Shown here: positions 9,061-49,607 of the stretch, one piece after another | How the letters are laid out: every line of letters begins with the position of its first letter | How positions within the stretch are numbered: position 1 is the first letter of the stretch | IMG/VR virus record: IMGVR_UViG_3300038393_001048 | Location: 1 to 52,875 of that record | DNA length: 52,875 nucleotides | DNA from: a virus | Taxonomy: Duplodnaviria > Caudoviricetes | Direction: 5' to 3' (one strand) | Translations under genes and position numbers: made by a program | The notes under the pieces: generated by a model | The model's input: only the letters and a program-made list of their open reading frames with translations | The model's database searches: none | What the model was told of the DNA's origin: nothing

Positions 9061-9067
9061 TCAAATG

Positions 9068-9106
9068 GTGGGGAGGGGGAATGGATGCCCCCTCCCTCAC
9101 TCTCTC
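9068..9106 (+). terminator. Hairpin downstream of the tail tube gene, probable terminator/attenuator
   Basis: GGGAGGGGG-AATGGATG-CCCCCTCCC stem followed by pyrimidines. Confidence 0.55.
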
Positions 9107-9127
9107 AATGGACCATAGGACGGATCG

Positions 9128-9382
9128 ATGCCAGAACAAGCCCCCGTGGCGAAGCCACTCTCTGAAGACGACTATTGCCTCATCATCGGCAAAGTCTACC
9201 TTGATGCATACCTCCGTATCCAATCCCTCGAAAAGCAACTGGGCCCTATGCATGCGAGCTTCCGTTCGCAGGTAGAGACGCTCCGTAACCAGGTCACCAA
9301 GTACGAGGACGCCCTCAGAGAGAAGGACGCGGAGATCGCGTCCCTCAAGAAGGAGGGCTCCACTGGAGACATGGGAACTTGA
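9128..9382 (+). CDS. Small coiled-coil hypothetical protein
   Basis: 84 aa with a heptad-like C-terminus (LRNQVTKYEDALREKDAEIASLKK). Confidence 0.6.
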   Translation: MPEQAPVAKPLSEDDYCLIIGKVYLDAYLRIQSLEKQLGPMHASFRSQVETLRNQVTKYEDALREKDAEIASLKKEGSTGDMGT

Positions 9383-31656: not shown

Positions 31657-31693
31657 CTACCCTTAGTATAGGACATGGATTGCAAAGTGTCAC
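31656..31693 (-). promoter_or_regulatory. Sigma70-like promoter with conserved phage motif, copy 1
   Basis: Minus strand GTGACA-17 nt-TATACT. CATGTCCTATACTAAGGGTAGG is 20/22 identical to the copy at 47352-47373. Confidence 0.7.
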
Positions 31694-33091: not shown

Positions 33092-33921
33092 GGAAGGTCC
33101 TCGAATCGCTTGATCATGTGGTGCGTCTTCTCCTCTTCGGCCACTTCCTGGAGTTTCTCCAGCAAGTCCTTGCCGACATAGCCATTGAGGAGCTTGGTGT
33201 GCAACCGCACGTCCATAAACAGGGCGTTGCCCTGATCGTCGGGGAGCAGGGAGACGAGGCGTATCATCTCGTAATTGATGGCGTAGTTGATCACCGAGAG
33301 GTAATCGGCGGGCCATTCGTAGCCAGCACGGGCCACCCCATAGTAGGTGACATTCTTGATGCCGCTGACGGCCAAGTCGAGCGACTCGCCGAAGGTTCGC
33401 CTAGTCCCGTCCTCGTGCGGGACGATCTCCCTCACTTCCCAAGGGATGCCGATGCCCAACGCCTGGATGAGGGCCACGTAATCCTTCGTCTCGCCGGGTG
33501 CCCCGTTGAGGATGACGACGACGCTACGCGGCTTGATACTCTGCCAGGTGGTGGCACTGTGCAACGTAGACTCCATCAAATCGATGTCGCTATCGGCATC
33601 ACAATAGATGATGAGAGTGGCCCCTAGCTCGAATTCCTTGGCAACGTCATTCGGCCACTCGTGTCGGGGGTGGGCGTCCCCCCACTGCTCGGTGCGATTG
33701 GCGTTGCAGAAGCGGCCCGCGATCAGCAGGTAGCGGCGGTAGCTGTCGTCCAGCCCGACGATCTCGGCTCCGTTGGCCTCGAACTTGTCGATCCGGCCCA
33801 ACGCACAGTCTTCCTGCTCGTTGCCCACGTTCTCAGCGAAGATACAGTCTCGGCAACTTGTGCTTATGCCACCATTAGCTTCTACGACCGCGTCTAGGTC
33901 GAATGGTTCGGGTTCGGACAT
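33073..33921 (-). CDS. Hypothetical protein: Cys-rich N-terminal domain plus possible degenerate GT-A-like domain
   Basis: TSCRDCIF...C.LGR...RFCN. TLHS...QSIKPRSVVVI resembles a GT2 N-terminus, but no DXD is evident. Confidence 0.5.
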   Translation of the reverse strand: MSEPEPFDLDAVVEANGGISTSCRDCIFAENVGNEQEDCALGRIDKFEANGAEIVGLDDSYRRYLLIAGRFCNANRTEQWGDAHPRHEWPNDVAKEFELGATLIIYCDADSDIDLMESTLHSATTWQSIKPRSVVVILNGAPGETKDYVALIQALGIGIPWEVREIVPHEDGTRRTFGESLDLAVSGIKNVTYYGVARAGYEWPADYLSVINYAINYEMIRLVSLLPDDQGNALFMDVRLHTKLLNGYVGKDLLEKLQEVAEEEKTHHMIKRFEDLPCVSQS

Positions 33922-34394
33922 CAGGGTCTCCTTGCGGTTACGTGATAGGTGAAGTTCTCGCTATGCTTCTTCAGGATCTCCATTCCCTGCCCCTGCAAAG
34001 CATTGATCAGGTGTTGGAGCGTCAACGTGGCCTTCTTATACTCCCACGGGGCACGCTGGGCTCCGTAGAGGAGGAAGTTGGCGTCCGTCAAGCTTAGCTG
34101 CTGATAGATGATTGCCTTTGATACGTCGCGGATGTCGACCCCGCCAATGGTGATGGTGCCGCCATGCCTCAGCTTCTTGATCCACCCAGCAATGATCTCG
34201 TTCGTTTCCGATGATGGCATGAAGTCGATCACATTGAGGGCGACAATATCGGTCGCCTCGGCATCATCGACGTACTCATCTAGGTTGACGATATCGCCGC
34301 TCGTGCGGTCGGGATCGCCGGGAGGGGCGAAGGGGTCTATGTTCGTGTATCCCGCCCTCACCATGTTGCTATTGTAAAGCAGGTTTAACTTCAT
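33921..34394 (-). CDS. Class I SAM-methyltransferase-like protein
   Basis: KLNL...GYTNID...GDI.NLD...I.A.NVIDF...W.KKL..GG.I.I pattern. The glycine-rich motif I is degenerate. Confidence 0.65.
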   Translation of the reverse strand: MKLNLLYNSNMVRAGYTNIDPFAPPGDPDRTSGDIVNLDEYVDDAEATDIVALNVIDFMPSSETNEIIAGWIKKLRHGGTITIGGVDIRDVSKAIIYQQLSLTDANFLLYGAQRAPWEYKKATLTLQHLINALQGQGMEILKKHSENFTYHVTARRP

Positions 34395-35407
34395 ACGTTC
34401 ACCACCTTGTTGGCGGTTGATAGGAGGACTTCGTTCCAGTTCGAAATGAAACTAGCAAGCGAGTAACGATCTTCGATCGTCTGTCGGGCCCGCTTCCCCA
34501 TCTCCGAGCATAGGCCGGGGTTTGCCAGGAGCCGCTCAAGCGACCCCCTCATCTTCACCTTATCGTTGGTGATGAAGCCGTTGACCCCGTCCTCGATCAC
34601 GTTGGCCGTCATCGGGTTCTCGGTGGATACCACCGCACACCCGCACGCCATCGCTTCGAGGAGGACGGTCGGGATGGGGCTCGCCGTCGCCGTGTTGATG
34701 AAGATGGAGGACTGCTGGTAGCGGAATACGAGTTCTGCTGTGTTCTGGGCGGGCCTCGACAAGTCGGGGGTGTCTCCCACAACGTAGCAGGGAAGCCCAT
34801 CGGTGACCTCTTTCCAGAGGTAGAAGCCACAGCACCAGTCCCGGTTGATCCAGTCGTTGACGACGGCCAGGATCACCGGCCTCCGGAAGAAGGAGGGCGG
34901 GGGTGGCTGGAAGAGGTTCGTGTCAACACCGTGGTCGATGACGACACTTCCCTGCTCCTCGAAGAGCCAGGCTTGCCTCGAATAATCGCTAATGAAGACG
35001 TTCGTGTCTCCGCTCATCTGCTTCATACGAAGGGTGACTCCGTCCCCCCAATCAGGGTGTGGGAGCGTATGCTCAAGGTTGATGAGCGGGATGTGCAACT
35101 TAGATGCTAGTTGCTTGGCAATTGGAAATTGCCCCATCTTGTTCTGCGAGAGCACCAGATCATAGGCGACGTCGGGGAGCATCTGGGCTTCGCCGCCCTC
35201 GCCGTTGAGGAGGGTGTAGTTGGGGGGAACCGGGGCAAAGACCCGGTTCCAATCTTTGATGCCGGGGCCACGCCAAGCATAGAATTGGTGGCCAGTGTGT
35301 GCCAAGTTAGACTCATATCTTTCGTGGGTCGGGAAAGTGAGAATGTTCAGTGGCTCATCAGGTTGACGGCATGCTGCACGCAAGATCGAGCTTAGTATCT
35401 TAGCCAT
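34391..35407 (-). CDS. Glycosyltransferase family 4 (GT-B)
   Basis: Start moved to MAKILSS. Motifs VIDHGVDTNLF, LLEAMACGCAVVST, IEDGVNGF, MGKRARQ. Confidence 0.88.
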   Translation of the reverse strand: MAKILSSILRAACRQPDEPLNILTFPTHERYESNLAHTGHQFYAWRGPGIKDWNRVFAPVPPNYTLLNGEGGEAQMLPDVAYDLVLSQNKMGQFPIAKQLASKLHIPLINLEHTLPHPDWGDGVTLRMKQMSGDTNVFISDYSRQAWLFEEQGSVVIDHGVDTNLFQPPPPSFFRRPVILAVVNDWINRDWCCGFYLWKEVTDGLPCYVVGDTPDLSRPAQNTAELVFRYQQSSIFINTATASPIPTVLLEAMACGCAVVSTENPMTANVIEDGVNGFITNDKVKMRGSLERLLANPGLCSEMGKRARQTIEDRYSLASFISNWNEVLLSTANKVVNV

Positions 35408-35912
35408 GATCCTCTTCCGGAAAGTTGAGCCTGACGAAGTCGCCAAAGAGTTCCTTAGCTTTCTGGTCATACGCTCTGGCTGCTTCGATCTCAGTGTCGA
35501 AACGTCCTACTAAGAGAGCCTTGTAGTTATGTCCTATGCTTGCTCTCCACTTCTTACGAAACTTGTCCCATGACACCCCCTTGAAACGCGATGTGCATGT
35601 GTTAAGTGATCTCTTTCTAGCTCTTGCTATATTCTGTTGATGAGTACATGCTACGAGGTTACGTCGAGTGTTATTGAGTGGGTCGTCGTCTTGATGATCA
35701 ACGTCCACCAATGGATCTGAAACTCCAAGAATGTATCGATGTAGCAGTATCACATGATCCTTCTTGGTTTCATTATCTCGACGCTTAACCTGGACGTATC
35801 CGTTCATACCCAAGATCCAATCAAAACGTGAGACGCGATCAGCATCGATCGCGTCAATAACGGCCATTCTACCTTGTGCATGCTTGCCACGCAGTGGAAT
35901 GAGAACATCCAT
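35400..35912 (-). mobile_element. Free-standing HNH-AP2 homing endonuclease gene
   Basis: LLHRYIL...VDHQDDDPLNNTRRNL...HQQN (HNH) and SRFKGVSW...KWRASI...GRFDTEIEAARAYD (AP2). Visibly more AT-rich than its neighbours. Confidence 0.88.
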
Positions 35913-36250
35913 TACTGGGTGGGCCTGTAGACGAAGAAGAGGACGGTGACTACGCCGCTCGGGGACCAGTTGGCCCCGTAGGCATTCTCCATTGCTACCT
36001 TCAAGCCATCGAAGTTCTGGGCACTCGCATCGTGCTCCAACTTCAGGATTTCCTCAGGGATGCTCTGGAATGGGATCACCATCTTGCCGATGATCTTCCC
36101 CCTGCCAATCGCTTCCCCAGCCTCATTTTCGATGACGACATCTTTGGGAAGCTGATCGACCAGCATATCCCACTTGGAACCGTCTCGCACAGTGACATTG
36201 ACGCCGGGCTGGAAGACGGGACTCTTGAACTTGAGTGGTTCGGACATCAC
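35912..36250 (-). CDS. Hypothetical protein, ASCH/PUA-like
   Basis: G.NVTVR.G and L...MENAYG...VTVLFF resemble ASCH-like domains. Confidence 0.45.
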   Translation of the reverse strand: MMSEPLKFKSPVFQPGVNVTVRDGSKWDMLVDQLPKDVVIENEAGEAIGRGKIIGKMVIPFQSIPEEILKLEHDASAQNFDGLKVAMENAYGANWSPSGVVTVLFFVYRPTQ

Positions 36251-36786
36251 TTGTTTCTCCGTTGCAAGATTGATTGTCGGACTTCTTGGATGGTCTTCTC
36301 AATACCGTAGGAACGTAGCTCCTCAAGTTGCTGGTGGCAACGTTCGATCACGGGTAAGAGGTCTGGTTGGTTGGTAAGGACGGCACGCTGGAGGCATACA
36401 TCCTTCGGCGTATTGATTACGAAGGGACGTGCGTTGATGTCCACTTCAAGAATTCTCTTGATGCTGGGGCGGGTTGTATTCGTCCCGTCCACCAGCACAT
36501 CGTGGCCACGGGCCAGCAAGGCTTCGACCATGTAGCCGTTAATGGCCCACACCATCGGCTCCCCTTCATGACGATAGCGTTCGCCGTAGAGGGCCAGCCG
36601 GATGTCGTCGGAGCAGACGAGGGCTCTCGGGCGACCATTCAGGAGGACGGCCCTCACCCACTCGGTGGCAAACGTGGACTTGCCGCTTCGCTGCACTCCC
36701 ATCATGAAGAAGAGGTTGCCGCGACCCATCGGCTCCCCGTGGGGGAAGTTCGTCCCGTCAATCTCAATGATTTCGGTATCACTCAC
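36247..36786 (-). CDS. P-loop kinase (polynucleotide-kinase / AAA_33-like)
   Basis: GVQRSGKSTFA Walker A, CSDDIR, VLVDGTN, TPKDVCLQR. No phosphatase domain. Confidence 0.8.
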   Translation of the reverse strand: MSDTEIIEIDGTNFPHGEPMGRGNLFFMMGVQRSGKSTFATEWVRAVLLNGRPRALVCSDDIRLALYGERYRHEGEPMVWAINGYMVEALLARGHDVLVDGTNTTRPSIKRILEVDINARPFVINTPKDVCLQRAVLTNQPDLLPVIERCHQQLEELRSYGIEKTIQEVRQSILQRRNK

Positions 36787-37916
36787 TGTAACGCCTCCTT
36801 CATTAGTTTTCCGATCTTGGCAAAGCTGAAGTCGAAGGCCCGTGCGGTGCCCGCCATCGCCTTCTGCTTGCGTAGCTCAGCATTCGTATAGGCTTCCCGC
36901 ATTGCAGCACGGAGCAGGGACACTTCGATACTGTCCCACTCTTCGAACGAAGTATGCAAGTTCTGGAAGGTGTCCAACTGTGTGGCGTAGACCGCTTCGC
37001 GATGGGCGGGAACCATCCATCCGCACTCGTTGTTGAGGTACTGGCGGAATCCGCTGGAATCGGTCACGATCGGGGTCTTGCCGAGGCCCATCGCGTCGAA
37101 GGCCGGGACCGACCAGGCTTCGCCGTAGGACGGGAAGACACCACAGTCGCACGAGGCGTGCAAGCGGAGGATCTCCTCCTCGCTGAATCGACCCGCGATC
37201 ACAATCTCCTCCTTGTAATGCTCCACCTTCTCATAGATCTTCAACCCCTCCTTGATGTGCTTGCAGAAGTCAACCGTATCAGCGTGGGTCTGCTGCTCAT
37301 CCTTGTCGCCCTTCGGCGTCGTCTTGATCAGGAGGCTGACCGACTCGTTGACATCGAACTCAAGGTGGAAGGCTTTCAGGAGGGCGACCAGGTTCTTCCG
37401 CCTGACGGATTCCCCGATCGTGTAGAAGATGAAGTTACCCGCCAACCTCTTCGTGATGCTCAGTGGCTCATAGGTACGACCGTACCTCGACACGTCGCAG
37501 GGGATCGGGAGCACGGACATCGGGATTGTGACCCCGCTGTCCTTAGCCGCTTGCAGATTGTGCTCACAGCACACCCACCCCTCGTCCATGCAGTTCAACT
37601 TCTCGGGCCAGTCAGTCATGCAGAAGTGGCTTGTCTCCGCAAAGAAGAGGCCGATGTTGCGTTTGAGTCGGCCCTCGTACTCCATCTGATGCGGGAGCAC
37701 GTGCTGAATGACTGCGTCGTAGGAGCCATGTTGCTTCGACTCCAATTCAACTATGCGAGGGGGAACCTCCCCCTTCACGTCATTCAATTTGATGGGCCGA
37801 CAGACTACGTCAACGCCAGCGGCGTCGAGGGCTTGGATGTAGTTGAGAGCGGCGTGCCCCCAACCCGTTCCGTCACGATAATTCGAGATGTAAAGCACTC
37901 TAATAGGCTTAGTCAT
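36783..37916 (-). CDS. Glycosyltransferase family 4 (GT-B)
   Basis: Start moved to MTKPIRVLYI. Motifs RKNLVALLKAF and PSYGEAWSVPAFDAMGLGKTPIVT. Confidence 0.85.
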   Translation of the reverse strand: MTKPIRVLYISNYRDGTGWGHAALNYIQALDAAGVDVVCRPIKLNDVKGEVPPRIVELESKQHGSYDAVIQHVLPHQMEYEGRLKRNIGLFFAETSHFCMTDWPEKLNCMDEGWVCCEHNLQAAKDSGVTIPMSVLPIPCDVSRYGRTYEPLSITKRLAGNFIFYTIGESVRRKNLVALLKAFHLEFDVNESVSLLIKTTPKGDKDEQQTHADTVDFCKHIKEGLKIYEKVEHYKEEIVIAGRFSEEEILRLHASCDCGVFPSYGEAWSVPAFDAMGLGKTPIVTDSSGFRQYLNNECGWMVPAHREAVYATQLDTFQNLHTSFEEWDSIEVSLLRAAMREAYTNAELRKQKAMAGTARAFDFSFAKIGKLMKEALQ

Positions 37917-39561
37917 GTTTGGAGCACCGCTTCTTTTCCCACAGGTTGTTGTACTCACACATGGAGCGAAGCTCATGGTAGGCGTGGCCGGTTCCGAACT
38001 CACGAACTCGGGCCCTGTACCCGTGCTCAAATGAATCCTCATTGAAGTAGGACGATCCCAACCCCTGCGTGGTGGCACCCCAATTCAAGTCGCGGATGAG
38101 ACGGAGAGCCAAGTAGGAGTTGACGAGTTCGGGCCTGCCCAGCACATTGGTGATGGCCCACTTCACGTAAGCCTCATTCGAGGGCATCTCGGCCGGTGCG
38201 GCTTGAGGTATGTGAATACGCGGGGGCGAATCCCAGGTCGCCTTCGGCTCTCGGAGGGGCAGGGAATCGAACACCTTCATCCACGTTTCCGTCGTCTTAT
38301 CCCAACTGTAGCTCTTCTCAGTGCAGGTGCGTGCCTTCTGATTGGCCAGGCGTCGGAGCGATTCGGGCTTGCTGAAGTAGCTGCCCAGCTTGGCTATGAA
38401 GTCATCGCCATCGGGGCGAGCCCTGAGACACCCACTTCCCTGCTCCTCATCAAGGCTGAGCACCCTGATGGGCACGCCACCAATCTTCCTCACAACGTCG
38501 GACATGGCCGAATAGTCGGTGGAGTAGACGGGCACCCCGCATGAGGACGCTTCAACTTGGGGCATGCCGAACCCCTCGCTGTTGGCATACTGGACGTAGA
38601 GGTCGAATAGGTTGATGATCTTGGAGAGGGTGGGCCTGTCGACACCGTCAGCGACGTTGGGCATGACGGCCGCATTCGAACCACACTTGACGCAGGCACC
38701 CCGACAGTCCTGGAAGAGGGCGGGGAAGATCAGATGGCAGAGTTTGCACCGATAGGTGACGATGATCTTGTGGGCCACGCCGCTCTGCTTGATGAGGCGG
38801 GGGATGTCCCAGCCATTCTTGTCGGGATAGCTCGTATGCAGATAGAGGTATGTCTTGAGAGCTATGTTGGGGGGAGCCGTCTTGATGAAGCGGGCAAAGT
38901 CCTTGATAAGCTGAGGGTACAGCTTGCGGGGCTGGTTCCGCATGACGGTGCCGACGATGAAGATGTCCTCGCGGAATGAGAAACGCCTTCGAAGATCGGC
39001 CTTGTCGACTGGGACGAATACCTCCATGTCGGCACAGGGCGGGGCTGAGCCTCGCGTCTTGATGAGACCCCCACCTTCCTGCTCCAGTACCTTCAGCCCC
39101 CAATCCGAGTAGGTGAGCACCGCATCCGCGTTCATGTAGGTAGATAGCCATGCTTCATTCTGAGGCATCGCATCAACCGTTGGCATGATGCACCAGTGGT
39201 AGAAGGGGCGGAACGGGCTCCGCTCGGCGAACTCCATCATCCAGTGATCGCGAATGTCCCAGACGATGTCGGGGCGATACTTGAGGCAAACCTCGTTGAA
39301 GGTGAAGTCGCCGAACTCGTAGCTGGATCGGGTGTCGTATTCCGCTCGTTGAGGGGAACCTTCGGGGGGCATATTACCGAAATAAGCCCACGGCAACTCG
39401 TGTTGACGTGGGTCATCTGGTGTTCCGTATATGGCAAGCTCGGCTAACTCGTACTTGCCGGTCGCATGGAGCCTCTTCATCACTTCCATGCCGTAGGTCG
39501 AATAGCCGGTTGAAAGAAAGCTGGCTTCGTTGACCAGCAGGAGGCGTGGTTTTCGGCTCAT
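37909..39561 (-). CDS. Glycosyltransferase family 4 with Zn-ribbon insertion
   Basis: TGYSTYG, VMRNQPRK, SEGFGMPQVEASSCGVPV; inserted CKLC...CVKC. Confidence 0.88.
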   Translation of the reverse strand: MSRKPRLLLVNEASFLSTGYSTYGMEVMKRLHATGKYELAELAIYGTPDDPRQHELPWAYFGNMPPEGSPQRAEYDTRSSYEFGDFTFNEVCLKYRPDIVWDIRDHWMMEFAERSPFRPFYHWCIMPTVDAMPQNEAWLSTYMNADAVLTYSDWGLKVLEQEGGGLIKTRGSAPPCADMEVFVPVDKADLRRRFSFREDIFIVGTVMRNQPRKLYPQLIKDFARFIKTAPPNIALKTYLYLHTSYPDKNGWDIPRLIKQSGVAHKIIVTYRCKLCHLIFPALFQDCRGACVKCGSNAAVMPNVADGVDRPTLSKIINLFDLYVQYANSEGFGMPQVEASSCGVPVYSTDYSAMSDVVRKIGGVPIRVLSLDEEQGSGCLRARPDGDDFIAKLGSYFSKPESLRRLANQKARTCTEKSYSWDKTTETWMKVFDSLPLREPKATWDSPPRIHIPQAAPAEMPSNEAYVKWAITNVLGRPELVNSYLALRLIRDLNWGATTQGLGSSYFNEDSFEHGYRARVREFGTGHAYHELRSMCEYNNLWEKKRCSKHD

Positions 39562-40713: not shown

Positions 40714-42747
40714 TCAGATTTCCCAGACTTTGTCGACAATGAAGGAACCTCTCTGTTGGTCCTTCCTGCCTTGGAGGGCAGCCACCGTTTTCTCCCGTGC
40801 GAGGAGATGTCCGTACTCTGCCCAAGCCTCTGAGAAGACCGTTACATCGTCCAGTGCCCCCGTCTCGTCCGAGACGCAGAGGTACGCCATCTTGCGTCCC
40901 CTGTTCTTGCCGTTCTTGACGGCGATCTCGCGGACTTCCTGGATCTCGACGCCGATCGTCATCTCGTACAGATCCTTGCCCTCGCGAAGCTCCTTGCAGG
41001 TGGTGTCGATCATGCTCTTATCAGCGGCATCAACGTGTGTGAAGGTGATTGGAAGTCCGAGGGCTTCCTCCTCCTTCTTGGCGATCCAGTAGGGCTTGTC
41101 CTCCAAGGGGGTCGGGGGACGGAGCAGGAGGTCGCGTATCGCCTCCACCTTCTCCCGGCGACCCGTGGTCACCGCGTCTGGACGCTCCAGGAGTTGGCCA
41201 ATGGCCTCGATGAGGTTGGTCGCCTTGCGGGCGTCGTCCAGAACGATGGGCTCGTCATTCTCGTCGAGCACTTCTCGATAGATGACATTGCCCTCCTCGT
41301 CCCTCGCCGACACCTTCTTCTTGACCATCTTCTTGCCGATCGCGGACGGGTGTTCGGGCTTCTCCTCCCCGTTCTTCTTGCACTCCTTGCAGAGGGCACG
41401 GTACGCCTTCATCTCGTCCTTGTCGTACTCGTCGACCTCGACCTCGACCGTCTCCTTGACCGCCTCCATCTGATAGAGGGGCTTGCCCAGCGAGGCGATT
41501 TGCTCACGCTCCTTGACTGTGAGGCGGGTCCATGCGTCGTACTCGGCGAGTAGGCGAAGCCGATCGAGCTTGAAGTTGCGGAGAGCCCCGACCTCGATCA
41601 TCTTCTTGATCATCGCCGCATTGCTGTGCTCGGAAAAGTAGACGAGGAATTCGAACCACGTCCACTGGATAGAGGGCCTTCCGACCTCCTGCTCCACGCC
41701 GCCAATGGCGGCGATCGTCTTCGCCACGTTCTTGACGCCGATACCCTTGACGTCGCTCAAGCCGAATGTGATCACCACCCTGTCGGTGGAGAAGTGCGGA
41801 TCGAAGTCATGGAAGCGGGGCGGCTGAACCTCAATGTTGAAGGTCTTGGCATCGTTGATGAGGGCCCTGATCTCCTTCAAGGGGTCCTGCTTCTCCTTCG
41901 CGAAGCGGAGGTAGGACGTGAAGAAGTAGATCGGGATGTGGGCCTTCTGGTGGGCCGTCCAATAGGAGTCGATCGCATAGCAGACGGAGTGGCTCTTGTT
42001 GAAGGAGTACCGACCGCTCTTCTGGATGTTGGCGAAGAGGCGTTCCGCCTCCTCCCTCGTGATGACCCCAAGCTTAGCAGCCTTCTCCACGAAGATGACG
42101 CCCACTTCCGTCATCAACTTCTGGTCCTTCTTACCAGCCGCCTTCCTCAGCTTGTCGACCTCGACGGGGGTGAAGGCCGCGACGATCTGAGCGATCTGCA
42201 TCATCTGCTCTTGATAGCAGAGAACATCGTAGGTCGGAGCCAAGATGTGCTCGATAGCAGGGATGTCGATCTCGACCGGCTCCTCCCCATTCTTGCGACG
42301 GCAGTACAACTCGGTCATCGAGACCCCGCGTTCGTCGCGGGCCTTGAGACAGCCGGGACGGAGCAGGGCGACGAGGGCAGACAGGTGTTCGAGGTTTCTG
42401 GGGCGAAGCCGCCTCGCCCAAGCCTTACCGAGCGAACTCTCCAACTGGAAGACGCCCTTCGTGCGTCCGGCACTGATGAGGTCCCAGGTCGCTTCGCAGT
42501 CCAGTGGTGCGTCTTCGACGCGATACCTGATGCTCGGGTATCCGTGAACCAGGGGCCGACTAGCATCGATCTCGAAGGAACAGCCACAGGAGAACTCGTA
42601 ACGGAGCCCGTCATCACTAACCTTCCCGCGAGGCACGTGGAACTGGACACCCTCACTCTCCCGAGTGATGTGACGGCCTTCGCCCTTACCCTTCTTCTTC
42701 CTCTTCTTTTTCCATTCGCCGGAGCCCCACCATTCTTCTTCACGCAC
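40714..42747 (-). CDS. dnaE: DNA polymerase III alpha, C-terminal part (fingers, HhH, OB)
   Basis: TKGVFQLES, ALLRPG, YQEQMMQIA, LRKAAGKK, YSFNKSHSVCY, FGLSDVKGIG; OB domain KMAYL.V.DETG...VF. Confidence 0.93.
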   Translation of the reverse strand: MREEEWWGSGEWKKKRKKKGKGEGRHITRESEGVQFHVPRGKVSDDGLRYEFSCGCSFEIDASRPLVHGYPSIRYRVEDAPLDCEATWDLISAGRTKGVFQLESSLGKAWARRLRPRNLEHLSALVALLRPGCLKARDERGVSMTELYCRRKNGEEPVEIDIPAIEHILAPTYDVLCYQEQMMQIAQIVAAFTPVEVDKLRKAAGKKDQKLMTEVGVIFVEKAAKLGVITREEAERLFANIQKSGRYSFNKSHSVCYAIDSYWTAHQKAHIPIYFFTSYLRFAKEKQDPLKEIRALINDAKTFNIEVQPPRFHDFDPHFSTDRVVITFGLSDVKGIGVKNVAKTIAAIGGVEQEVGRPSIQWTWFEFLVYFSEHSNAAMIKKMIEVGALRNFKLDRLRLLAEYDAWTRLTVKEREQIASLGKPLYQMEAVKETVEVEVDEYDKDEMKAYRALCKECKKNGEEKPEHPSAIGKKMVKKKVSARDEEGNVIYREVLDENDEPIVLDDARKATNLIEAIGQLLERPDAVTTGRREKVEAIRDLLLRPPTPLEDKPYWIAKKEEEALGLPITFTHVDAADKSMIDTTCKELREGKDLYEMTIGVEIQEVREIAVKNGKNRGRKMAYLCVSDETGALDDVTVFSEAWAEYGHLLAREKTVAALQGRKDQQRGSFIVDKVWEI

Positions 42748-43495
42748 TCTTCTTCCTCCTCTTTGGCTTGGCCTCCTCGTCGGGAGCTTCCGCTCCCGAC
42801 TTCTCGGCCTCGCGGTCCCTCTCCATCGCCTCCAGGTCGAAGCAATTCTTGAAGCGGACTTTCCGGCCGAAGTGGCGGGATAGCATGAGGAGCTTCTGGA
42901 GGATCGCGGCAGTGTCCTTGACGTCCTGCAAGGCGTCGTGGGCCCCGTCCTTGGATGCCTGAGGCATGCCGAAGTAGACGCGGAGGTTGTCCAGGGACAA
43001 GCTTCGCGGGTCCTTCAGATTCTCTGTCCAGTACCCCAACAACTGGATCGTGTCATAATGTTTCAAGTTGTTGAAGATGCCGGGCACCTTCTTCTTGAGG
43101 AACTTGTCGGGCTTGAGGGTCCCGTACTTGTGGGAGTAACGCTCGTAGAGCGTCATATCGAAGTTGACTATGTTGTGGCCCGCCATCACGGGGGCCGCAA
43201 ACAAATCGGTCTTGCCACCCAGGTTGAATTGGGAGCACCAGTCGGCGAACTTGTGCCAGACCTCTTGCGGGTGCGGTGCCCTTAGCAACTCCTCCTTGGT
43301 GAGCTTGGTCAGCTTGAGAGACTCGGGGTCAAGCTTGTCGGGCTCAAGAGGACGCATCTTCATGTTGAAGTGCGTGTCGTACAGCTTGAGGTCTCGGGGC
43401 CGCATCGCTACGGCACCGATCTGGGTGATCTCGCAGAGGGAGGGGTCTCGCCCTCCCGTCTCGAAGTCCATAACGATGATCGTGTTGTATAGGAT
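42740..43495 (-). CDS. DEDDh 3'-5' exonuclease (DnaQ/epsilon-like); start uncertain
   Basis: DFETGG (ExoI), GHNIVNFD (ExoII), AHDALQDV (ExoIII). GAGGAG sits 7 nt before an in-frame ATC at 43495. Confidence 0.85.
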   Translation of the reverse strand: MLYNTIIVMDFETGGRDPSLCEITQIGAVAMRPRDLKLYDTHFNMKMRPLEPDKLDPESLKLTKLTKEELLRAPHPQEVWHKFADWCSQFNLGGKTDLFAAPVMAGHNIVNFDMTLYERYSHKYGTLKPDKFLKKKVPGIFNNLKHYDTIQLLGYWTENLKDPRSLSLDNLRVYFGMPQASKDGAHDALQDVKDTAAILQKLLMLSRHFGRKVRFKNCFDLEAMERDREAEKSGAEAPDEEAKPKRRKKSA

Positions 43496-43508
43496 GACTA
43501 GGCTCCTC

Positions 43509-44144
43509 TTAACATCTGGGGACCTCGTACTTCTTATGGACCTTGTCCGGATCGGCATCCATAAGGATGTTGAGATCGAACTCCGGAGCCTTCTCCAACT
43601 TCTTCCTGATCAGTCGCACGACGAGGCGGGCGTCAGCGAGTGCTTGGTGCTGATCGACAATCTCGATCCCGGCCCGCTTCGCACACACTTCGGTGCTCGG
43701 CACGCGATCATCCTCAAGTTCCAGGTACATGGAACCGGGGTCGATGCTCCGGTGGGCCAGACGAAGGTACTTCGAGAAGTCGGGCAACCGCTCAAGGAAC
43801 TGCCGATCGAAGGACCCAAAGTTCTTCCCGGCACACTTGATGGGGCTGGTCACGTCGACCCCATTCTGGCCGAGCCAACTGCCGAAGGCAGTTACCACAT
43901 GTTCGGGGAAGCAGAAGAGCTTGTCGGGGTGTGCATCGGGGTTACTGATGATGCGGAGGATCTCCGCATTCATGAAGAGGGCGTACGGCTCCCCAAGGAT
44001 CTGGGGGTGGACCACGTAGCAGTGGAAGGTGGGCAGCGTATCGATGTCCGATGTTCCGTCGTCGATCACCGCACCGATTTCCAACACCTGGCACCAAGAG
44101 GGCTGTAAGCCCGTCGTCTCGATGTCGATAGACACGTACTGCAT
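43509..44144 (-). CDS. Second DEDDh 3'-5' exonuclease (oligoribonuclease/DnaQ-like)
   Basis: YVSIDIETTGL, GKNFGSFDRQFL, HRSID, HQALADA. Confidence 0.88.
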   Translation of the reverse strand: MQYVSIDIETTGLQPSWCQVLEIGAVIDDGTSDIDTLPTFHCYVVHPQILGEPYALFMNAEILRIISNPDAHPDKLFCFPEHVVTAFGSWLGQNGVDVTSPIKCAGKNFGSFDRQFLERLPDFSKYLRLAHRSIDPGSMYLELEDDRVPSTEVCAKRAGIEIVDQHQALADARLVVRLIRKKLEKAPEFDLNILMDADPDKVHKKYEVPRC

Positions 44145-44848
44145 CAGAAGCTCCCTAGTATCAACCGCTCGTAATTGAGGACGGCTAAGCCGCCATCGGA
44201 CCTGTGTCGCTGCGTATCGAAGTCGTAGTAGATCGACTGTTCCAATGTTGCTCCGTCGCCATCCTCGTTGATGACGGGGATGGTCCTCACGAAGGAGTAA
44301 CAGTCACGCTGGACGCCGATTACTACGTCGGCATCTCCACCAGCCAACGTACCCTGACAATTATCCAAGAAGACCTTGAGCACTCGCTCGTACCGATCTA
44401 CCGGGATCGGGTGTACGCGAATGCCATCCAGCCAGTTGAAGATCTCGATCGTCGTCGGCTGGTCTGCACTGATATAGATGTCCGTTAAGTCCTTGCCGCC
44501 ATACTTAATGTGGCTGGCTCGCATGAGACGCAGGAGACGAGAGGTCAAGACGCCCGGCTTCGCATGCTCATCAAAGCAGACCATATTACGATCGGCGGCA
44601 GCGGAGATGATGCAATCCATCGCCTGGTCGTCCAACTCACGCCACACTTCGAAGGTGGAATGGCCGGAAACTGAGAGGGTGGGGATGATCACATCATCAT
44701 TGAAGGATCGTTGGGTGCTCTGGTCATCCTTGGGCACATAGACGATAGCTGGACCCTTACTGAAAGGGTCCTTCTGCATTAGACAGTTGCCCATATGACG
44801 GCTGGGCTTAAACTTCTTCGCCTCGAAGAGACTGATGAACTCGTTCAT
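44144..44848 (-). CDS. Hypothetical protein resembling a shortened HK97-fold major capsid protein
   Basis: Blocks AAADRNMVCFDEHAKPGVLTSRLLRLMR, LTDIYIS, GTLAGGDADVVIGV...SFV and terminal GLAVLNYERLILGSF recall MCP C-terminal halves. This is recalled similarity, not a search result. Confidence 0.55.
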   Translation of the reverse strand: MNEFISLFEAKKFKPSRHMGNCLMQKDPFSKGPAIVYVPKDDQSTQRSFNDDVIIPTLSVSGHSTFEVWRELDDQAMDCIISAAADRNMVCFDEHAKPGVLTSRLLRLMRASHIKYGGKDLTDIYISADQPTTIEIFNWLDGIRVHPIPVDRYERVLKVFLDNCQGTLAGGDADVVIGVQRDCYSFVRTIPVINEDGDGATLEQSIYYDFDTQRHRSDGGLAVLNYERLILGSF

Positions 44849-45401
44849 TGATGTAGTTCCTGGCCTTAATAAGGACCTTGACCATCTCCTTCACCTTATC
44901 ATTGCTCCCTCGGAGCAGGAAGGAGGGGTGGTACATGGGGAGGATGATGCCGCCTTCGCGGAGAAAGGAGGCTTTGTGGGGTTTGCCTACGGCAGCGGAG
45001 ATTCTGAAGGTGCTCTTGCCCTTCAAGAGGAGGCGGGCTGGGGTATTCCCGAGCGGGATGACGACGAGAGGATCTACGATCCTCATCTCTTTCCAGAGCC
45101 ACCCTTTGCAAGCCTGGATCTCCTCGGGGAGCGGGGCCCGATTCTTCGGGGGGCGACAGCGACAGACGTTGGTGACGAAGACCGCTTCGCGGTCCATCTT
45201 GGCTTCGCCCAGCATCTTGTTGAGGAGCTTGCCAGAGGCCCCCACGAATGGGAGCCCCTGATCGTCCTCCTCAGCACCGGGAGCTTCGCCGACGAACATC
45301 AGAGGGGCAGGGAAGGGTCCGTCCCCTGGAACCACTTGCTTGCAGGTTGCCCTCAGGTCGCACTTGTGACAAGCCCGCTCCAGCGACTTAAGCTGCATCA
45401 T
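44808..45401 (-). CDS. udg: Uracil-DNA glycosylase family 4
   Basis: CHKCDL...C Fe-S cysteines, VGEAPG..ED..G.PFVG.SG, TNVCRCRPP.NR.P, MYHPSF. Confidence 0.93.
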   Translation of the reverse strand: MMQLKSLERACHKCDLRATCKQVVPGDGPFPAPLMFVGEAPGAEEDDQGLPFVGASGKLLNKMLGEAKMDREAVFVTNVCRCRPPKNRAPLPEEIQACKGWLWKEMRIVDPLVVIPLGNTPARLLLKGKSTFRISAAVGKPHKASFLREGGIILPMYHPSFLLRGSNDKVKEMVKVLIKARNYINERVHQSLRGEEV

Positions 45402-47343
45402 GATCGATTCTCCCGGTAAGGGCGAGGCTCCTGTAAGCCATCGCCTTGTCGAGGAAGGCAACACGAAGCACGTCAATCTTGCATCCGCCCATCTTCTCGA
45501 CGGAGTTCATTTCCATAGCGGCGATGTTGCTCTTGGACGTCTCGTCCCACTTGAGGGGCACGAACGTGTGGAGGGGCTCGGCACCGATGAGCACGCCAGC
45601 GGCGTGCGTGCCGATGTGCTTCTTCACACCTTCCAGGCGGATCGCTTGGGCGAAGCGGGCCCCATACTCGCCACTGATGGACTTGATCCTGCCGTCGTCG
45701 TCAAACTCGGCACGGGCCCAGTCGGACAGGTCGTCAGCCAACACGTCGAGCGAGTAGGCGATGATGGAGGGTTCCCCACCCGCCTTCCTCATCTCTTCGA
45801 GTTCTTCGGAGATGCGGGCCTTGTCGGGCAACGTCTTGGTGATCCGCTTGATCAGTTCGTGGTCTTCCTCGTGTGCCCGCATCACTTCGGTGAGGGCGGA
45901 ACGCCCCTGCATGCTATTGAAGGTGGCAATCTTGGCGACGTAATCCTCACCGTACATGGTGCCAAGGTATGCAAAGATCTCGTCAGCCTTCTCCTTCGGA
46001 ATGTCGCTGTCGATGTCAGGGAGGCTGGCGACACCGTTGGAGACACGACCCTCATTGTAGAAACGTTCGAAGATCAATCCATACTTGATCGGGTCCACTC
46101 CCGTGATCCCGGTCAACCAGGAGATGATGCAGCCCGCACCCGATCCACGACCGGGCCCGAGAATCCACCCCTTCCGCCTCCCATAATTCATGAAGTCCTG
46201 GACGATAAGGAAGTAGGCCGAAAGACCCACCCCCTTGATCACGTCCAATTCCATCTTGAGACGTTGCTCGTAGACCTCGATGGGCTCTGAGAGCAACCTT
46301 CCCTGCACCTTATCCCTCCACCCCTGATCGCACAACTCTTTCAGGTAGGTGTCAGCATTCATGCCATCGGGGCAGGGAAAGTGAGGAAGCATCGGAGAGT
46401 GGAGGATGTCATAGTCCTCGCACATGTCGGCGATCCTGACCGACTGCTCCAACTCCTCCTTGGGGTGGTTCTCCAGCAACTCCTCTTCCGAAGGAAGGTA
46501 GAAGGCGGAACTTCTGAAGAAGTTCCCCATCGTGAGGTCGGGCTGAAGGAAGGCTTTCCCCCTGTTGAGGGCGGCGTTCAAGGTGGTCTTCATATGCGAA
46601 CAGAGGACCACCCTCTGGTCGTCCGCATCCATCGATTCCGGATAGTGGACGTCGGGCGTGGCAACGCAGGGGATGCCGAATCGCTTCGCGATCACCCTCA
46701 TCGTGATGGCGACCGCCTTCGAAGCGGGTATCACGTCGGGGTCAACAACCTGCGTCTGGATGAAGAAGTTCTCCTTGCCGAAGATCGAGATGTATTGTTC
46801 GACGATCGCCGAGAGTCGCTTGGACCAGTCGGGGTGGACCAACTTCCTGACCTCGTCGAGCGAGGCCGACTGGTAGGCGACCTTGGGGTCGACGAAGAGG
46901 GCATTGGCCAGGTCCGACCCCATGTGACCGCTCATCGCGATCAGGTTGTGGCCTACTGTGAAATCGGCGAGCGATTCCAGGCTGAGGCGTGGCCCCTGAT
47001 ACGAGTGCTCCCTGTTGCTTGAGCGGCTGACGGCCCCGATCAACTGCTTCCAGCCCGCCAAATTCTTGGCGAGCAGCACGACGTGCGAGTAGGGGCGACC
47101 GTTGTCCGACGTCTTGATGGTCGGATCATCCCTGCATAGGTTGAACTCGCAACCAAGAAGGGGCTTCAGCTTCGCCGCCCTCATCGCAGAGACGAACTCA
47201 ACGGCCGCTCCCAAGTTCCCGTGATCGGTCATGGCGACTGCCGAATAGCCAAAGTTCGCAGCCCGCTTGGCGAGAGCGTCTGGCTTGGCAATCGCGTCGA
47301 GCAAGCTGTAGTGCGTGTGGTTGACTAGCGGACAGAACGCCAT
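45388..47343 (-). CDS. dnaE: DNA polymerase III alpha, N-terminal part (PHP + palm)
   Basis: HTHYSLLD, MTDHGN, DVHY (PHP); GPGRGSGAG, FERF, LPDIDSD, GTHAAGV and KIDVL palm motifs. AGGAGG RBS. Confidence 0.95.
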   Translation of the reverse strand: MAFCPLVNHTHYSLLDAIAKPDALAKRAANFGYSAVAMTDHGNLGAAVEFVSAMRAAKLKPLLGCEFNLCRDDPTIKTSDNGRPYSHVVLLAKNLAGWKQLIGAVSRSSNREHSYQGPRLSLESLADFTVGHNLIAMSGHMGSDLANALFVDPKVAYQSASLDEVRKLVHPDWSKRLSAIVEQYISIFGKENFFIQTQVVDPDVIPASKAVAITMRVIAKRFGIPCVATPDVHYPESMDADDQRVVLCSHMKTTLNAALNRGKAFLQPDLTMGNFFRSSAFYLPSEEELLENHPKEELEQSVRIADMCEDYDILHSPMLPHFPCPDGMNADTYLKELCDQGWRDKVQGRLLSEPIEVYEQRLKMELDVIKGVGLSAYFLIVQDFMNYGRRKGWILGPGRGSGAGCIISWLTGITGVDPIKYGLIFERFYNEGRVSNGVASLPDIDSDIPKEKADEIFAYLGTMYGEDYVAKIATFNSMQGRSALTEVMRAHEEDHELIKRITKTLPDKARISEELEEMRKAGGEPSIIAYSLDVLADDLSDWARAEFDDDGRIKSISGEYGARFAQAIRLEGVKKHIGTHAAGVLIGAEPLHTFVPLKWDETSKSNIAAMEMNSVEKMGGCKIDVLRVAFLDKAMAYRSLALTGRIDHDAA

Positions 47344-47351
47344 TTTATCCT

Positions 47352-47388
47352 CCTACCTATAGTATAGGACATGAATCGGGAACGACAA
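47352..47388 (-). promoter_or_regulatory. Sigma70-like promoter with conserved phage motif, copy 2
   Basis: Minus strand TTGTCG-16 nt-TATACT; CATGTCCTATACTATAGGTAGG runs into the dnaE-N RBS. Confidence 0.7.
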
Positions 47389-47390
47389 CT

Positions 47391-47804
47391 TTATCTGTTG
47401 TCCCCGCTCCCCTTGAGCACGCCGCGACCCTGGCGATCGTGAAGTTTCCTCACGTTGATGACGGCGATCTCTCCGAGGTCGAAACCGATCTGGGTGGAAA
47501 GTTCTGCGAGATACCAGGCCACATCGCTCAGTTCCTTCGCGATAGCCTGCCTCTTCTCCTCGCTCATCACGCCGCCGTCGTCCCGCATGATCTTCTTGAC
47601 CTTCTCGGCGACCTCACCGGCTTCGCCGCAAAGGCCGAGGGCGACGTACTGGAGGCCCGCATCCGTGCCCCTCCCCGGATAAACGGCGGTTTTCGCCGAG
47701 TCCTGCTGGTATTGGTTGAGAGTGTAACTCTCAGAGTTCCTTTGGAGCCTTTCGTCCACCACCGTCTCCGTATTCGTTGTATGCACCTGTGCGTCCAAAC
47801 TCAT
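47391..47804 (-). CDS. mazG: MazG-like nucleoside triphosphate pyrophosphohydrolase (start uncertain)
   Basis: LGLCGEAGEVAEKVKK, KELSDVAWY, N..KL.DR..RG...GSGDNR. Confidence 0.9.
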   Translation of the reverse strand: MSLDAQVHTTNTETVVDERLQRNSESYTLNQYQQDSAKTAVYPGRGTDAGLQYVALGLCGEAGEVAEKVKKIMRDDGGVMSEEKRQAIAKELSDVAWYLAELSTQIGFDLGEIAVINVRKLHDRQGRGVLKGSGDNR

Positions 47805-48750
47805 GGGTTGTTGCCTCGATTCCTTTGGTGCGAACCTGGTCCGCGAAGAATTGACAGACCGTCTTCGACGGGTCCTGTGTTGACATGGTTTTGCCGAAGT
47901 GGCAGAAGCCGGTACATTTTCGCCCCACGTTTAGGAAGGGCACCGTCGTATCGCGGATCTCGTTGAACTTCTTGCTCAGCATCTTCTCCGTGTAGGCGAG
48001 ATCCTCCTTGCAGAAACAGACCGAGTATGGACCACCATCATTGATGTAGTAGATGGTAATCCATATCTCTTCGGCATCAGGGTAGAGGCGGCAAGCCGCA
48101 TAGTGGTATAAGCATAGTTGTGGGTCATGACATATATCCTCATATGTCTTCTTCTCCCACCCCTCCTTGGACCAATCCTTTCTCTGCCCCGTCTTCCAGT
48201 CGATGATCTCGACGATGCCCTGCCCGTACTTATTCCTGGTGATGAGGTCGATGGTCCCCTTAATGCCAAGCTGGCCGACGAGTCTCGTCCCGTCGTCCAA
48301 CGTATAGTCATAATGGGCCCACGGCTCATCGATCTCGAAGTTGAACCGCTGTTCCTGAGCGATGATGTCGAGGTTGCGAGGGTCGTATCGCCCATCATTG
48401 AAGGTGATGGCCTTGTTGGTCCACTTGAGGCAGTCATCTAGATCCTTCTTCTCCCATTCGATATGGGGCGAGTCCGGCGTGTAGAAGTCCCAGGCCGCTT
48501 GCGTGGCCCAGTCTGGAGTCACCTGATTGATGTCGACGAGGCCGAATGCTTCGTCGACATATGAGGTAGCCCCGCTAGCACGACACAAGCTCACCTGAGC
48601 CAAGACTTCCAGAGCCTTGTGAACGATGGTGCCCTTGTCGGCGGCTTTGCCCGAGGGAGGGCGGATGCCGAGCACATACTCAAGGTAATACTTATGGGGG
48701 CATATGGAGTGGGTCCCGTAAGAGGAACTCCGAACGAAGGTAATAATCAT
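47731..48750 (-). CDS. PD-(D/E)XK nuclease, Cas4/RecB/AddB-like with probable Fe-S cysteines
   Basis: CPHKYYL, GTIVHKALE, GTIDL, IIDWKTG, QLCLY, and C-terminal C...C.F...C. Confidence 0.85.
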   Translation of the reverse strand: MIITFVRSSSYGTHSICPHKYYLEYVLGIRPPSGKAADKGTIVHKALEVLAQVSLCRASGATSYVDEAFGLVDINQVTPDWATQAAWDFYTPDSPHIEWEKKDLDDCLKWTNKAITFNDGRYDPRNLDIIAQEQRFNFEIDEPWAHYDYTLDDGTRLVGQLGIKGTIDLITRNKYGQGIVEIIDWKTGQRKDWSKEGWEKKTYEDICHDPQLCLYHYAACRLYPDAEEIWITIYYINDGGPYSVCFCKEDLAYTEKMLSKKFNEIRDTTVPFLNVGRKCTGFCHFGKTMSTQDPSKTVCQFFADQVRTKGIEATTHEFGRTGAYNEYGDGGGRKAPKEL

Positions 48751-49607
48751 GCAGCAGCTTTCTCAGCGTATTGGACGAAGTCCTTGAAGGAAAGGGGGCC
48801 AGCGTACCACTGGTTGTCCATGAGGAACTTGAGGATTCGCAGACATGTACCGTTTATCCCGATGTCCTCATTGTAGATGACGTGATCGAAGTTCGACCAG
48901 TCGTAGCGATCGATATCGAGAGCCGTCTCGCTCGCGTGGGCATCCCCAGGAAAGATGTTGCGGGTGAGGCGAATGACCTTGCCGCCCTCGGCCTTGGCCA
49001 CATCGACCTCATTGGGGAACCGACAATCGGTGATGACGGCAAACTCACAGCCATCCTTGCGGATGGCACGAATGCAGGCGTCGGCCCACACGTTGTGGTA
49101 AGCCTTGCGGAAGACCTCGGTGCCCCAGTATTGGAGCACTTCGCGGACGGACATGGGCCCCGTCAGGGGATTCACCACGTCTCCGTCGTGGAAGCGGATA
49201 GGTGCTACTTGCGTAGGGGTGATCGGTAGCTCCATCTCCGCTTCGAAGTTGATCTCAGGGAGCTTCCCCTTGAATTGAATGCCGTCAGTGTGGATTAGAA
49301 ATTCTGGTGGCTCAGCGACCGCAAGCTTGAAGTTCCCATTGGGGATACCTGTGAAGACCGAGCCGTTAGAACGCTTATAGGATGGTACGGGGAAATTCTC
49401 CCAGAGAAGGTGGGGCACTAGCTCGTTCTTATCGGCATCGGTCCCATAGACCTTCTCTTCGGGACACCCAAGGATGTCGATGCACATCCGCTTGAGCGGA
49501 TCGGCAAAGTAGAAGTGGCGGGCCTCCGGAATCAACTGCTTGATGAACTTGAAGCAAGTGTCTTTGCCACTTTGCTTCCTCCCCGATATTGCAAGGATCT
49601 TCTGCAT
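48747..49607 (-). CDS. Deoxynucleoside monophosphate kinase (T4 gp1-like)
   Basis: ISGRKQSGKDT, FADPLK, REVLQYWGTEVFR, ITDCRFPNE, HASE. Confidence 0.9.
   Translation of the reverse strand: MQKILAISGRKQSGKDTCFKFIKQLIPEARHFYFADPLKRMCIDILGCPEEKVYGTDADKNELVPHLLWENFPVPSYKRSNGSVFTGIPNGNFKLAVAEPPEFLIHTDGIQFKGKLPEINFEAEMELPITPTQVAPIRFHDGDVVNPLTGPMSVREVLQYWGTEVFRKAYHNVWADACIRAIRKDGCEFAVITDCRFPNEVDVAKAEGGKVIRLTRNIFPGDAHASETALDIDRYDWSNFDHVIYNEDIGINGTCLRILKFLMDNQWYAGPLSFKDFVQYAEKAAA

Follow-up and report, generated by a model that had tools for sequence, protein, structure and literature searches.

Why would a phage keep a relative of its major capsid protein (MCP) among the genes of its DNA polymerase? 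This question is raised by the viral record IMGVR_UViG_3300038393_001048 (Duplodnaviria; Caudoviricetes). The window analyzed here is the whole of that record, 52,875 bases with an estimated completeness of 35%, and the gene in question is the open reading frame (ORF) at 44144..44848 on the minus strand, which starts with ATG and encodes a protein of 234 amino acids (aa), hereafter P0001. Sequence and model comparisons argue that P0001 is a homolog of the MCP of its own clade, with a trimmed but whole HK97 fold, and kept by purifying selection in a replication operon. Its role allows several readings, among which we tentatively prefer that of a mimic of the MCP outside the virion.

The relatives of P0001 were collected with HMMER, where a profile of P0001 and two close orthologs, searched against 1.84 billion representatives, returned 58 proteins at E<=1e-3. 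The family alignment holds 58 sequences, namely the three orthologs and 55 matches, two giant repetitive proteins being left out. In hhalign, 27 short family members matched 13 clade MCPs (~335 aa) with a probability of 100% (E 1.7e-43), and the three close orthologs alone matched the clade MCPs at 99.6% (E 5e-24). In the MCP, the P0001 alignment begins at residue ~53 and continues, with internal deletions, as far as the ..LLGS[FY] that ends both proteins, and the two have in common the motifs DRNxxVYD, TxRLxxLM, LTDxF, GDxxLxIG...SFV and the C-terminal VLLGS[FY]. P0001 lacks three parts of the clade MCP: the N-arm, which makes up the N-terminal ~50 residues; a stretch of ~30 residues that follows the VPTY strand, where E-loop and spine helix join; and ~20 residues of an A-domain loop (domain names are those in the available text of PMC5701804). 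The N-arm and the full E-loop, the elements that lace subunits and capsomers together, are thus missing from P0001, and its spine helix is only 22 residues long (65-86). The comparison used clade MCPs; the records of the paralog's own lineage are fragments, with the cognate MCP outside them. The initial annotation, made from the sequence alone, had described a shortened MCP corresponding to the C-terminal half. The shortening and the kinship stand, on the evidence of hhalign and of the fold; the assignment to a half does not, since the alignment begins near MCP residue 53, and by these alignments P0001 is better described as a trimmed whole HK97 fold.

The long form of the family is the real MCP, because of its head-module context and its match to phrog_2522. 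Two of the 58 proteins, both among the ~330-aa family members, match phrog_2522 'major head protein' (best E 1.5e-10), and three of ten tested match PF25209 (Phage_capsid_4) weakly, below its cut-off. In the related record G002 the head module runs from the maturation protease through the large terminase (TerL), genes of 700, 505 and 154 aa, the MCP and a 255-aa gene to a head protein, and the MCP itself has 334 aa (phrog_2522, E 3e-5). The window is colinear with two distant relatives, G002 (105.8 kb) and G001 (74.7 kb), at 25-45% identity over structural and replication genes. In each of them the single MCP gene precedes, by ~10 kb, the homologs of the window genes from 4781 on, and the MCP of the window's phage is therefore to be expected just outside the 5' end of the window. 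This fits the earlier expectation of a true MCP outside the window, within which a second copy or an MCP was absent at E<=10. We considered whether P0001 could itself be the phage's real MCP in an odd place, and rejected this on the grounds of its deletions, its rarity in the clade and the synteny with G001 and G002.

The gene itself is well defined. The initial annotation had reported a 234-aa gene that overlaps the UDG gene by 41 nt and is coupled to an exonuclease gene through TGATG, and the ORF list and translation agree: the first 41 nt lie within the 3' end of the UDG gene (44808..45476, minus strand), and the stop TGA (44146-44144) and the ATG of the exonuclease 1 gene form TGATG with the A in common. 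All four sequence blocks quoted there are found in the translation, DRNMVCFDEHAKPGVLTSRLLRLMR at residues 86-110, LTDIYIS at residues 121-127, GDADVVIGV...SFV at residues 171-187 and GLAVLNYERLILGSF at residues 220-234. The N-terminal motif MNEFISLFE (general form F[LI]xLFE) is kept in close and distant relatives of P0001, and the ATG at 44848 is therefore the real start. P0001 is more than a chance ORF because its orthologs are 76% and 71% identical, its ratio of nonsynonymous to synonymous divergence (dN/dS) is 0.16, and it has 57 further database relatives at E<=1e-3. We also rejected a fragment of an MCP produced by gene calling, given the conserved N-terminus and the position of the ORF within a 52.9-kb contig.

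The fold of P0001 is accessible through its model and less so through direct searches. Neither Pfam nor PHROGs gave a family for P0001 at E<=0.1, tblastn against 50,697 phage records gave no match, and a profile search of PDB sequences gave chance-level matches only (E>=0.1). The ESM Atlas gave no usable feature match, and its model was poor (pLDDT 0.33). An AlphaFold2 (AF2) model was built with the protein's own 58-sequence family alignment, true MCPs included, and reached a pLDDT of 87.3 and a pTM of 0.84; its weak parts are residues 18-25 (pLDDT <50) and the 10-residue blocks over 11-50, which average 47-67. A Foldseek search of an AlphaFold model against HK97-fold capsids and encapsulins had been proposed earlier as a check, and with the AF2 model it gave 113 matches in the PDB and 111 in BFVD at E<=1e-3. 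The 49 PDB matches listed are HK97 capsids or encapsulins, the best being the T. maritima encapsulin 7kq5 (E 7e-6) and the capsid proteins of mycobacteriophage Douge, HFTV1 and T5; the named BFVD proteins among the matches listed are mostly MCPs. The Foldseek probability is up to 1.00 and the TM-score by query is modest (0.29-0.55). Modest TM-scores are usual for the flexible HK97 fold. As modeled, P0001 is an HK97-fold protein with an A-domain of sheet and helices and a P-domain with the spine helix.

The gene is maintained at its locus, and this bears on whether it is a relic. The close orthologs are 76% (P0002, on a 20.9-kb contig) and 71% identical to P0001, and the frame is intact in all three. 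Record G004, at locus L002, shares the arrangement of genes all the way from DnaB to the glycosyltransferases, with the UDG overlap and the start-stop coupling preserved. Between L002 and the window 13 neighboring proteins are 82-98% identical and the paralog 71-72%. By the Nei-Gojobori method, dN is 0.19 for the paralog and 0.013-0.12 for the 13 neighbors, dS is 1.18 against 0.20-0.77, and dN/dS is 0.16 against 0.036-0.158. Purifying selection acts on the paralog, which nevertheless exceeds its neighbors in divergence at both kinds of site and is the most diverged gene of the module. A copy at a further locus, L003, is not an independent data point because its dS is 0 against the L002 copy. 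In 150-nt sliding comparisons with L002, identity is 0.65-0.79 over the whole paralog ORF and 0.83-0.98 over most of the module, the other low bins in the module being three short dips at gene junctions or insertions and scattered single ones at 0.75-0.82. Two further DNA runs lend weak support: their contigs join over 44158-44618 with the flanks matched and the middle unmatched at 80% likeness, the sides being only 26-34 letters long.

These values weigh on the idea that P0001 is a decaying or neutral duplicate without function. Its standing as the most diverged gene of the module and its absence from most relatives would suit such a relic; the intact frame in three orthologs at 71-76% identity, the dN/dS of 0.16, the confident predicted fold and the persistence of the family across phages with helicases only ~35% identical do not, and we regard a relic as very improbable. 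The initial annotation had let its reading depend on an HK97-fold match, on similarity to the MCP and on relatives that keep the gene without decay, with a dN/dS below 1; a fold match, MCP homology and an intact copy under constraint in L002 are what we found.

Three short dips in nucleotide identity to L002 (0.50, 0.58 and 0.63) are seen elsewhere in the module, at 43494-43643, 42594-42743 and 49194-49343; the first falls where exonucleases 1 and 2 meet, the second where the DnaE C-half begins and the third within the dNMP kinase gene, and they may be linkers or indels. The ten runs listed as matching window 42700-47400 are all DNA runs labeled as soil or rhizosphere metagenome, with no RNA run among them, and four runs of four studies carry related strains at 80-99% likeness to that segment; the two runs that match best may represent the source sample.

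The operon around P0001 supplies the evidence for a second reading, and its genes are as follows.

45388..47343, minus strand: DNA polymerase III alpha N-half, with PHP and NTPase/palm (PF07733, E 2.6e-63; PF02811, E 2.3e-32)
44808..45476, minus strand: UDG superfamily gene (PF03167, E 1.7e-35), whose likely start is an internal ATG near 45401
44144..44848, minus strand: P0001, the trimmed HK97-fold MCP paralog as judged by AF2, Foldseek, hhalign and dN/dS
43509..44144, minus strand: exonuclease 1, DEDD, RNase_T-type (PF00929, E 3e-8; phrog_192, E 3e-21)
42740..43558, minus strand: exonuclease 2, DEDD, clade-wide, between the dnaE halves (PF00929, E 5e-18)
40714..42747, minus strand: DNA polymerase III alpha C-half, with fingers and HhH (PF17657, E 5.9e-38)

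On the same strand, MazG, a PD-(D/E)XK nuclease, a dNMP kinase, a Toprim primase and DnaB lie upstream of this split-DnaE block, and an uncharacterized 180-aa gene and SSB lie downstream of it. The initial annotation had placed the gene between the two dnaE halves on the replication strand and away from the virion genes. The Pfam-annotated neighbors agree with the first statement; for the second, the window genes with homologs in the relatives' structural modules are those of the plus strand at 1-28 kb. A scan for terminator-like sites on the minus strand between the dnaE halves found none save one weak site at 40762-40745, a 5-pair stem with 3 G-C pairs inside the 3' end of the DnaE C-half. 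A promoter and terminator scan gave counts no higher than in shuffles, and a tRNA search found none.

In all four distant relatives examined (G001, G002, G005 and G010) dnaE is divided into two ORFs that enclose a DEDD exonuclease gene, and the split is therefore ancestral to the clade. The exonuclease in that place is homologous to exonuclease 2 in each of the four. Exonuclease 1 is only 26% identical to exonuclease 2 and has no homolog at E<=1e-3 in any of five related records. G001 and G002 have the order DnaE_N-exonuclease-DnaE_C without the paralog, and the gap of 230 nt in G002 leaves no room for it. Because the paralog and exonuclease 1 are missing from related records, UDG, paralog and exonuclease 1 look, by sequence comparison, like a lineage-specific insertion into the ancestral split-dnaE arrangement. 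The UDG ortholog in L002 is 91% identical, and L002 repeats the start-stop coupling of paralog and exonuclease 1 (8001-8699 / 8699-9298).

This arrangement invites the main rival to a mimic, namely that P0001 might be a structural partner of the coupled exonuclease 1, or of UDG or the split polymerase, and would stabilize, tether or organize the enzyme. The TGATG coupling in both the window and L002 speaks for it, as does exonuclease 1 being as lineage-specific as the paralog (0/5 related records), the two together with UDG resembling one inserted cassette. The paralogs of G005 and G010 likewise lie in replication or recombination modules, and a precedent exists in the Family 4 encapsulins, truncated HK97 proteins in conserved two-gene operons with enzymes, for which a partner role of this kind has been proposed, according to the available text of PMC8346489. 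However, the neighbor of the paralog varies, being a 160-aa protein and a glycosyltransferase in G005 and three small ORFs in G010; G001 and G002 replicate without any paralog; P0001 has no match to Pfam DUF1884 or to encapsulins; and fast divergence is unusual for the partner of conserved enzymes. We consider an enzyme partner unlikely, if well worth keeping in view.

How widely the clade carries such genes was judged from 23 MCP-bearing records, five of them complete genomes, searched whole with the family profile. Extra copies beside the MCP occur in one of the 23 records and in one of the five complete genomes, in both cases G010, a complete genome of 130.8 kb. The paralog is an accessory gene, unlike the universal MCP. 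In G010 a 343-aa member (P0061; L156:9426-10457, minus strand, equivalent to G010:108426-109457) lies between a RecA-like gene and the three small ORFs located ahead of DnaB. In G005, which has a helicase of 35% identity, a 199-aa member is found between MazG and DnaE, followed by the 160-aa protein, of no known kind, and then by the glycosyltransferase. Paralogs thus recur beside replication genes in G005 and G010; an exception to this placement is a 117-aa mini in L111 (1336-1689, plus strand), upstream of the terminase. Single-protein scans of viral contigs with P0008, P0042, P0004 and P0011, and scans of genome contigs with P0011 and with alignment A1, found nothing. A metagenome scan with alignment A6 gave, among the matches listed, full-length MCP-type loci only. 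The members P0012, P0014 and P0063 are on contigs of 180-205 kb. A third, weak family match in G010 (48257-48496, plus strand; E 9e-5) is a 95-aa frame with an in-frame TAA, and may be a decayed mini copy.

The family is heterogeneous in length and in its N-termini. By length the 58 aligned proteins fall into 12 minis (<150 aa), 33 short forms (150-275 aa) and 13 long forms. All that remains in the minis (~115-145 aa) is the end of the spine helix, elements of the A-domain and, at the C-terminus, the LLGSY strand; those listed are L111:1336-1689 (plus strand), P0021, P0025, P0027, P0030, P0034, P0037, P0048, P0058 and P0059. Another mini, P0047, which in the tree is near-identical to the MCP of G010, is probably a fragment of an MCP. 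An AF2 model of a ~120-aa mini had a pLDDT of 83.7, and its fold search gave 0 matches at E<=1e-3, with capsids among the weak matches (E 0.3-2) and no A-domain encapsulin among the matches listed. A Tat-like N-terminus, that is, a twin-arginine motif with a hydrophobic stretch, was flagged by script in 16 of the 58 proteins, about a third of the family; one flag was judged a false positive and three were near misses. The Tat-like members are P0061, P0007, P0008, P0011, P0020, P0022, P0029, P0043-P0045, P0049, P0053, P0054, P0056 and P0060. TIGR01409 (Tat signal) was listed for three of ten tested, one of them at its cut-off, and 'Tat-like' is used here as a reading of the sequences and not as a curated call. 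P0001, P0002 and P0003, which start MNEFI.., have neither the RR motif nor the hydrophobic stretch. The two giants left out of the alignment, P0017 (2341 aa) and P0024 (1680 aa), match profile residues ~28-83 in 4 and 6 separate stretches, respectively, which could be a repeat akin to the N-terminal beta region, or noise.

In a quick maximum-likelihood tree (67 rows, 214 columns, weak backbone; P0005 replaced by an identical locus copy), the MCPs form one starred short-branched clade and all paralogs are on long branches. P0001 and its two orthologs form a starred trio, the nearest other rows being short forms at path lengths of 2.6-2.8. From the long branches it follows that the paralog family is old or very fast-evolving, and not a recent copy of the MCP. 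Judged from the sequences, the family has persisted across phages whose helicases are only ~35% identical. A description of this family was not found in Pfam, PHROGs or the literature; the supplements of papers might list such genes.

To what extent P0001 could still build a shell can be approached through its predicted self-association. The ipSAE of 0.65, against 0.07 for the best of 3 controls, is a mark reached by 20/30 proteins solved as pairs of one chain and by 1/23 solved as single chains, in a calibration set made differently from the P0001 prediction, which was run with four copies and a custom alignment. Across the four-copy runs the contact agreement was at least 48% and the partner pLDDT at least 69. 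The confident contacts involve residues 126-138 and 145-147 on both copies. As the contact residue numbers sum to ~263, we read the modeled contact as an antiparallel two-fold pairing of strands at the remodeled A-domain tip, and not as a head-to-tail capsomer contact. The prediction supports self-binding of P0001 without showing it.

A role in the head is a further reading: P0001 might be a minor capsid subunit at a vertex or penton, or might assist or regulate assembly of the MCP as a chaperone would, although its gene is not in the head module. It is homologous to the MCP and retains both the core of the P- and A-domains and the conserved strand at the C-terminus, its self-association is modeled, and an MCP homolog in pentamer positions is known, the SaPIbov5 protein Ccm described in the available text of PMC8569155. 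Yet the gene belongs to a replication operon, does not share the strand of the virion genes, is missing from four of the five complete clade genomes, has the N-arm and part of the E-loop deleted, and has diverged far faster than the tight short-branched MCP clade, and the modeled contact is two-fold and not ring-like. We judge such a role to be improbable. P0001 would not be a building block of the shell, because the lost parts lace HK97 capsomers and the sole modeled self-contact is two-fold.

The loss of the lacing elements, the early-type operon, the rarity in the clade and the high divergence argue for an accessory protein outside the virion. Expression of P0001 would coincide with that of the replication enzymes and would precede, or be separate from, that of the late head genes. 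We suggest, as a possibility that falls short of an even chance, that P0001 is a candidate soluble mimic of the MCP acting in phage-host or phage-phage conflict; the mimic is favored because resemblance to the MCP is the property most likely to have been kept. Two versions can be envisaged. CapRel and Lit are capsid-triggered defense systems, and P0001 might occupy a host sensor of the MCP fold without triggering it, as a decoy. In the available text of 10.64898/2026.01.04.697583, MCPs are themselves what Avs7 and Dsr1 recognize in MCP-sensing immunity. Alternatively, by analogy with Ccm, P0001 might cap or poison the capsomers of rival phages related to its own. A conflict role would agree with the fast divergence and the patchy presence of the gene, which are no proof of it. 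The head-assembly and relic explanations fit worse than either the mimic or the enzyme partner.

Several points weigh against the mimic. The excess divergence of the paralog may reflect allele exchange rather than an arms race, because dS is raised too (1.18, near saturation) and dN/dS is well below 1. The expression timing of P0001 rests on gene order. A faithful mimic of the trigger could set off an abortive system and not block it. The Tat-like members, if their N-termini act as the sequences suggest, cannot be cytoplasmic decoys, and therefore no one role is obvious for the family as a whole. Both the paralog and exonuclease 1 are lineage-specific, which fits an enzyme partner. The AF2 alignment, with true MCPs in it, biases the model toward an HK97 outcome; homology to the MCP was shown independently of it.

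Comparison with known systems places P0001 more precisely. The clade MCP (~335 aa, phrog_2522, weak PF25209) is homologous to it over the whole fold; the MCP is a universal and slow-evolving gene of the head module, whereas P0001 is trimmed, long-branched and accessory and belongs to the replication operon. T4 gp24, a vertex protein and virion component, is a full-length paralog of gp23 encoded beside it in the late head cluster. Like gp24, P0001 is an intragenomic MCP paralog; the full length and the late head cluster are gp24 traits that it does not have.

Ccm, as proposed here for P0001, is a homolog of an HK97 MCP without itself being the principal protein of the shell, and it works as a mimic of the capsid protein during assembly. 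In the available text of PMC8569155 it is a satellite-encoded homolog of the helper capsid protein that takes pentamers and redirects the shape of the capsid. Ccm thus differs in being directed by a satellite against its helper and in being incorporated in capsids, whereas P0001 is encoded in the phage's own replication operon and is without lacing elements. By analogy, Ccm could serve as a precedent for the assembly-interference version of the mimic.

The Family 4 'A-domain' encapsulins, as far as the available text of PMC8346489 describes them, share with P0001 a truncated HK97 fold and an operon with enzymes and not virion genes. One of them complexes with GAPDH, one operon type concerns nucleotide metabolism (DeoC), and they were proposed to be non-shell, possibly oligomeric helpers, one member having crystallized as a dimer. 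They have ~100 aa, consist of the A-domain only (DUF1884), occur in hyperthermophilic archaea and two Bacteroidetes genera, and are encoded downstream of the enzyme in that account. P0001, in contrast, has 234 aa, keeps P-domain strands, is phage-encoded upstream of an exonuclease gene, and has no family match; the ~120-aa minis are closer than P0001 to Family 4 in layout. Classical encapsulins resemble P0001 in their compact HK97 fold and similar size (~265 vs 234 aa), and have an N-terminal helix and a full E-loop that it lacks. For encapsulin Families 1-3, P0001 gave no PF04454 match (no Pfam at E<=0.1) and no PDB sequence match. The sequence evidence therefore traces P0001 to the phage MCP family, not to the encapsulins.

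Two other parts of the window deserve mention. Directly downstream of SSB, at 30841-39561 on the minus strand, lie five glycosyltransferase genes (four GT1-like and one GT2) together with a MobA-like nucleotidyltransferase and an AAA_33 kinase; the block is kept in L002/G004 and partly in G001 and G002. With the upstream dNMP kinase, MazG and UDG, its gene content suggests sugar-modified DNA or virion glycosylation. In the structural module, a 3111-aa ORF at 11882-21217 on the plus strand has no family assigned, and partial homologs are found at the same place in G002 (3555 aa) and G001 (1995 aa). None of ten tested plus-strand proteins between 108 and 11776 matched a PHROG family.

HK97-fold proteins are known as shells, in capsids and encapsulins, with Ccm and the A-domain encapsulins as side branches. 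The fold is thus known already, and so are homologs of the MCP that serve other purposes, as encapsulins, A-domain encapsulins and Ccm do. What did not turn up in our searches of the literature, Pfam and PHROGs is a trimmed MCP paralog kept by selection in a phage's own polymerase operon, or a family that includes Tat-like and mini forms. On a wider view, which we consider doubtful but worth stating, a clade of large phages from soil and water would have repeatedly exapted its MCP into trimmed, fast-evolving, non-virion kinds: cytoplasmic dimeric proteins, Tat-exported proteins and ~120-aa A-domain-like minis. The cytoplasmic form would then be the first natural early capsid decoy, directed at sensors of the CapRel, Lit, Avs7 or Dsr1 type ahead of the appearance of the genuine MCP, or a replisome scaffold, a phage-borne protein of encapsulin type.

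P0001 points to a non-structural use of capsid proteins. If it is a mimic acting against capsid-sensing immunity or rival phages, it would represent a new class of counter-defense and would give a direct handle on how phages face immunity that targets a structural fold they cannot do without. Should it instead be a scaffold for enzymes, it would be an exaptation of the capsid-to-encapsulin type inside a virus. Under either reading, the family is a set of natural minimal HK97 folds for structural work.

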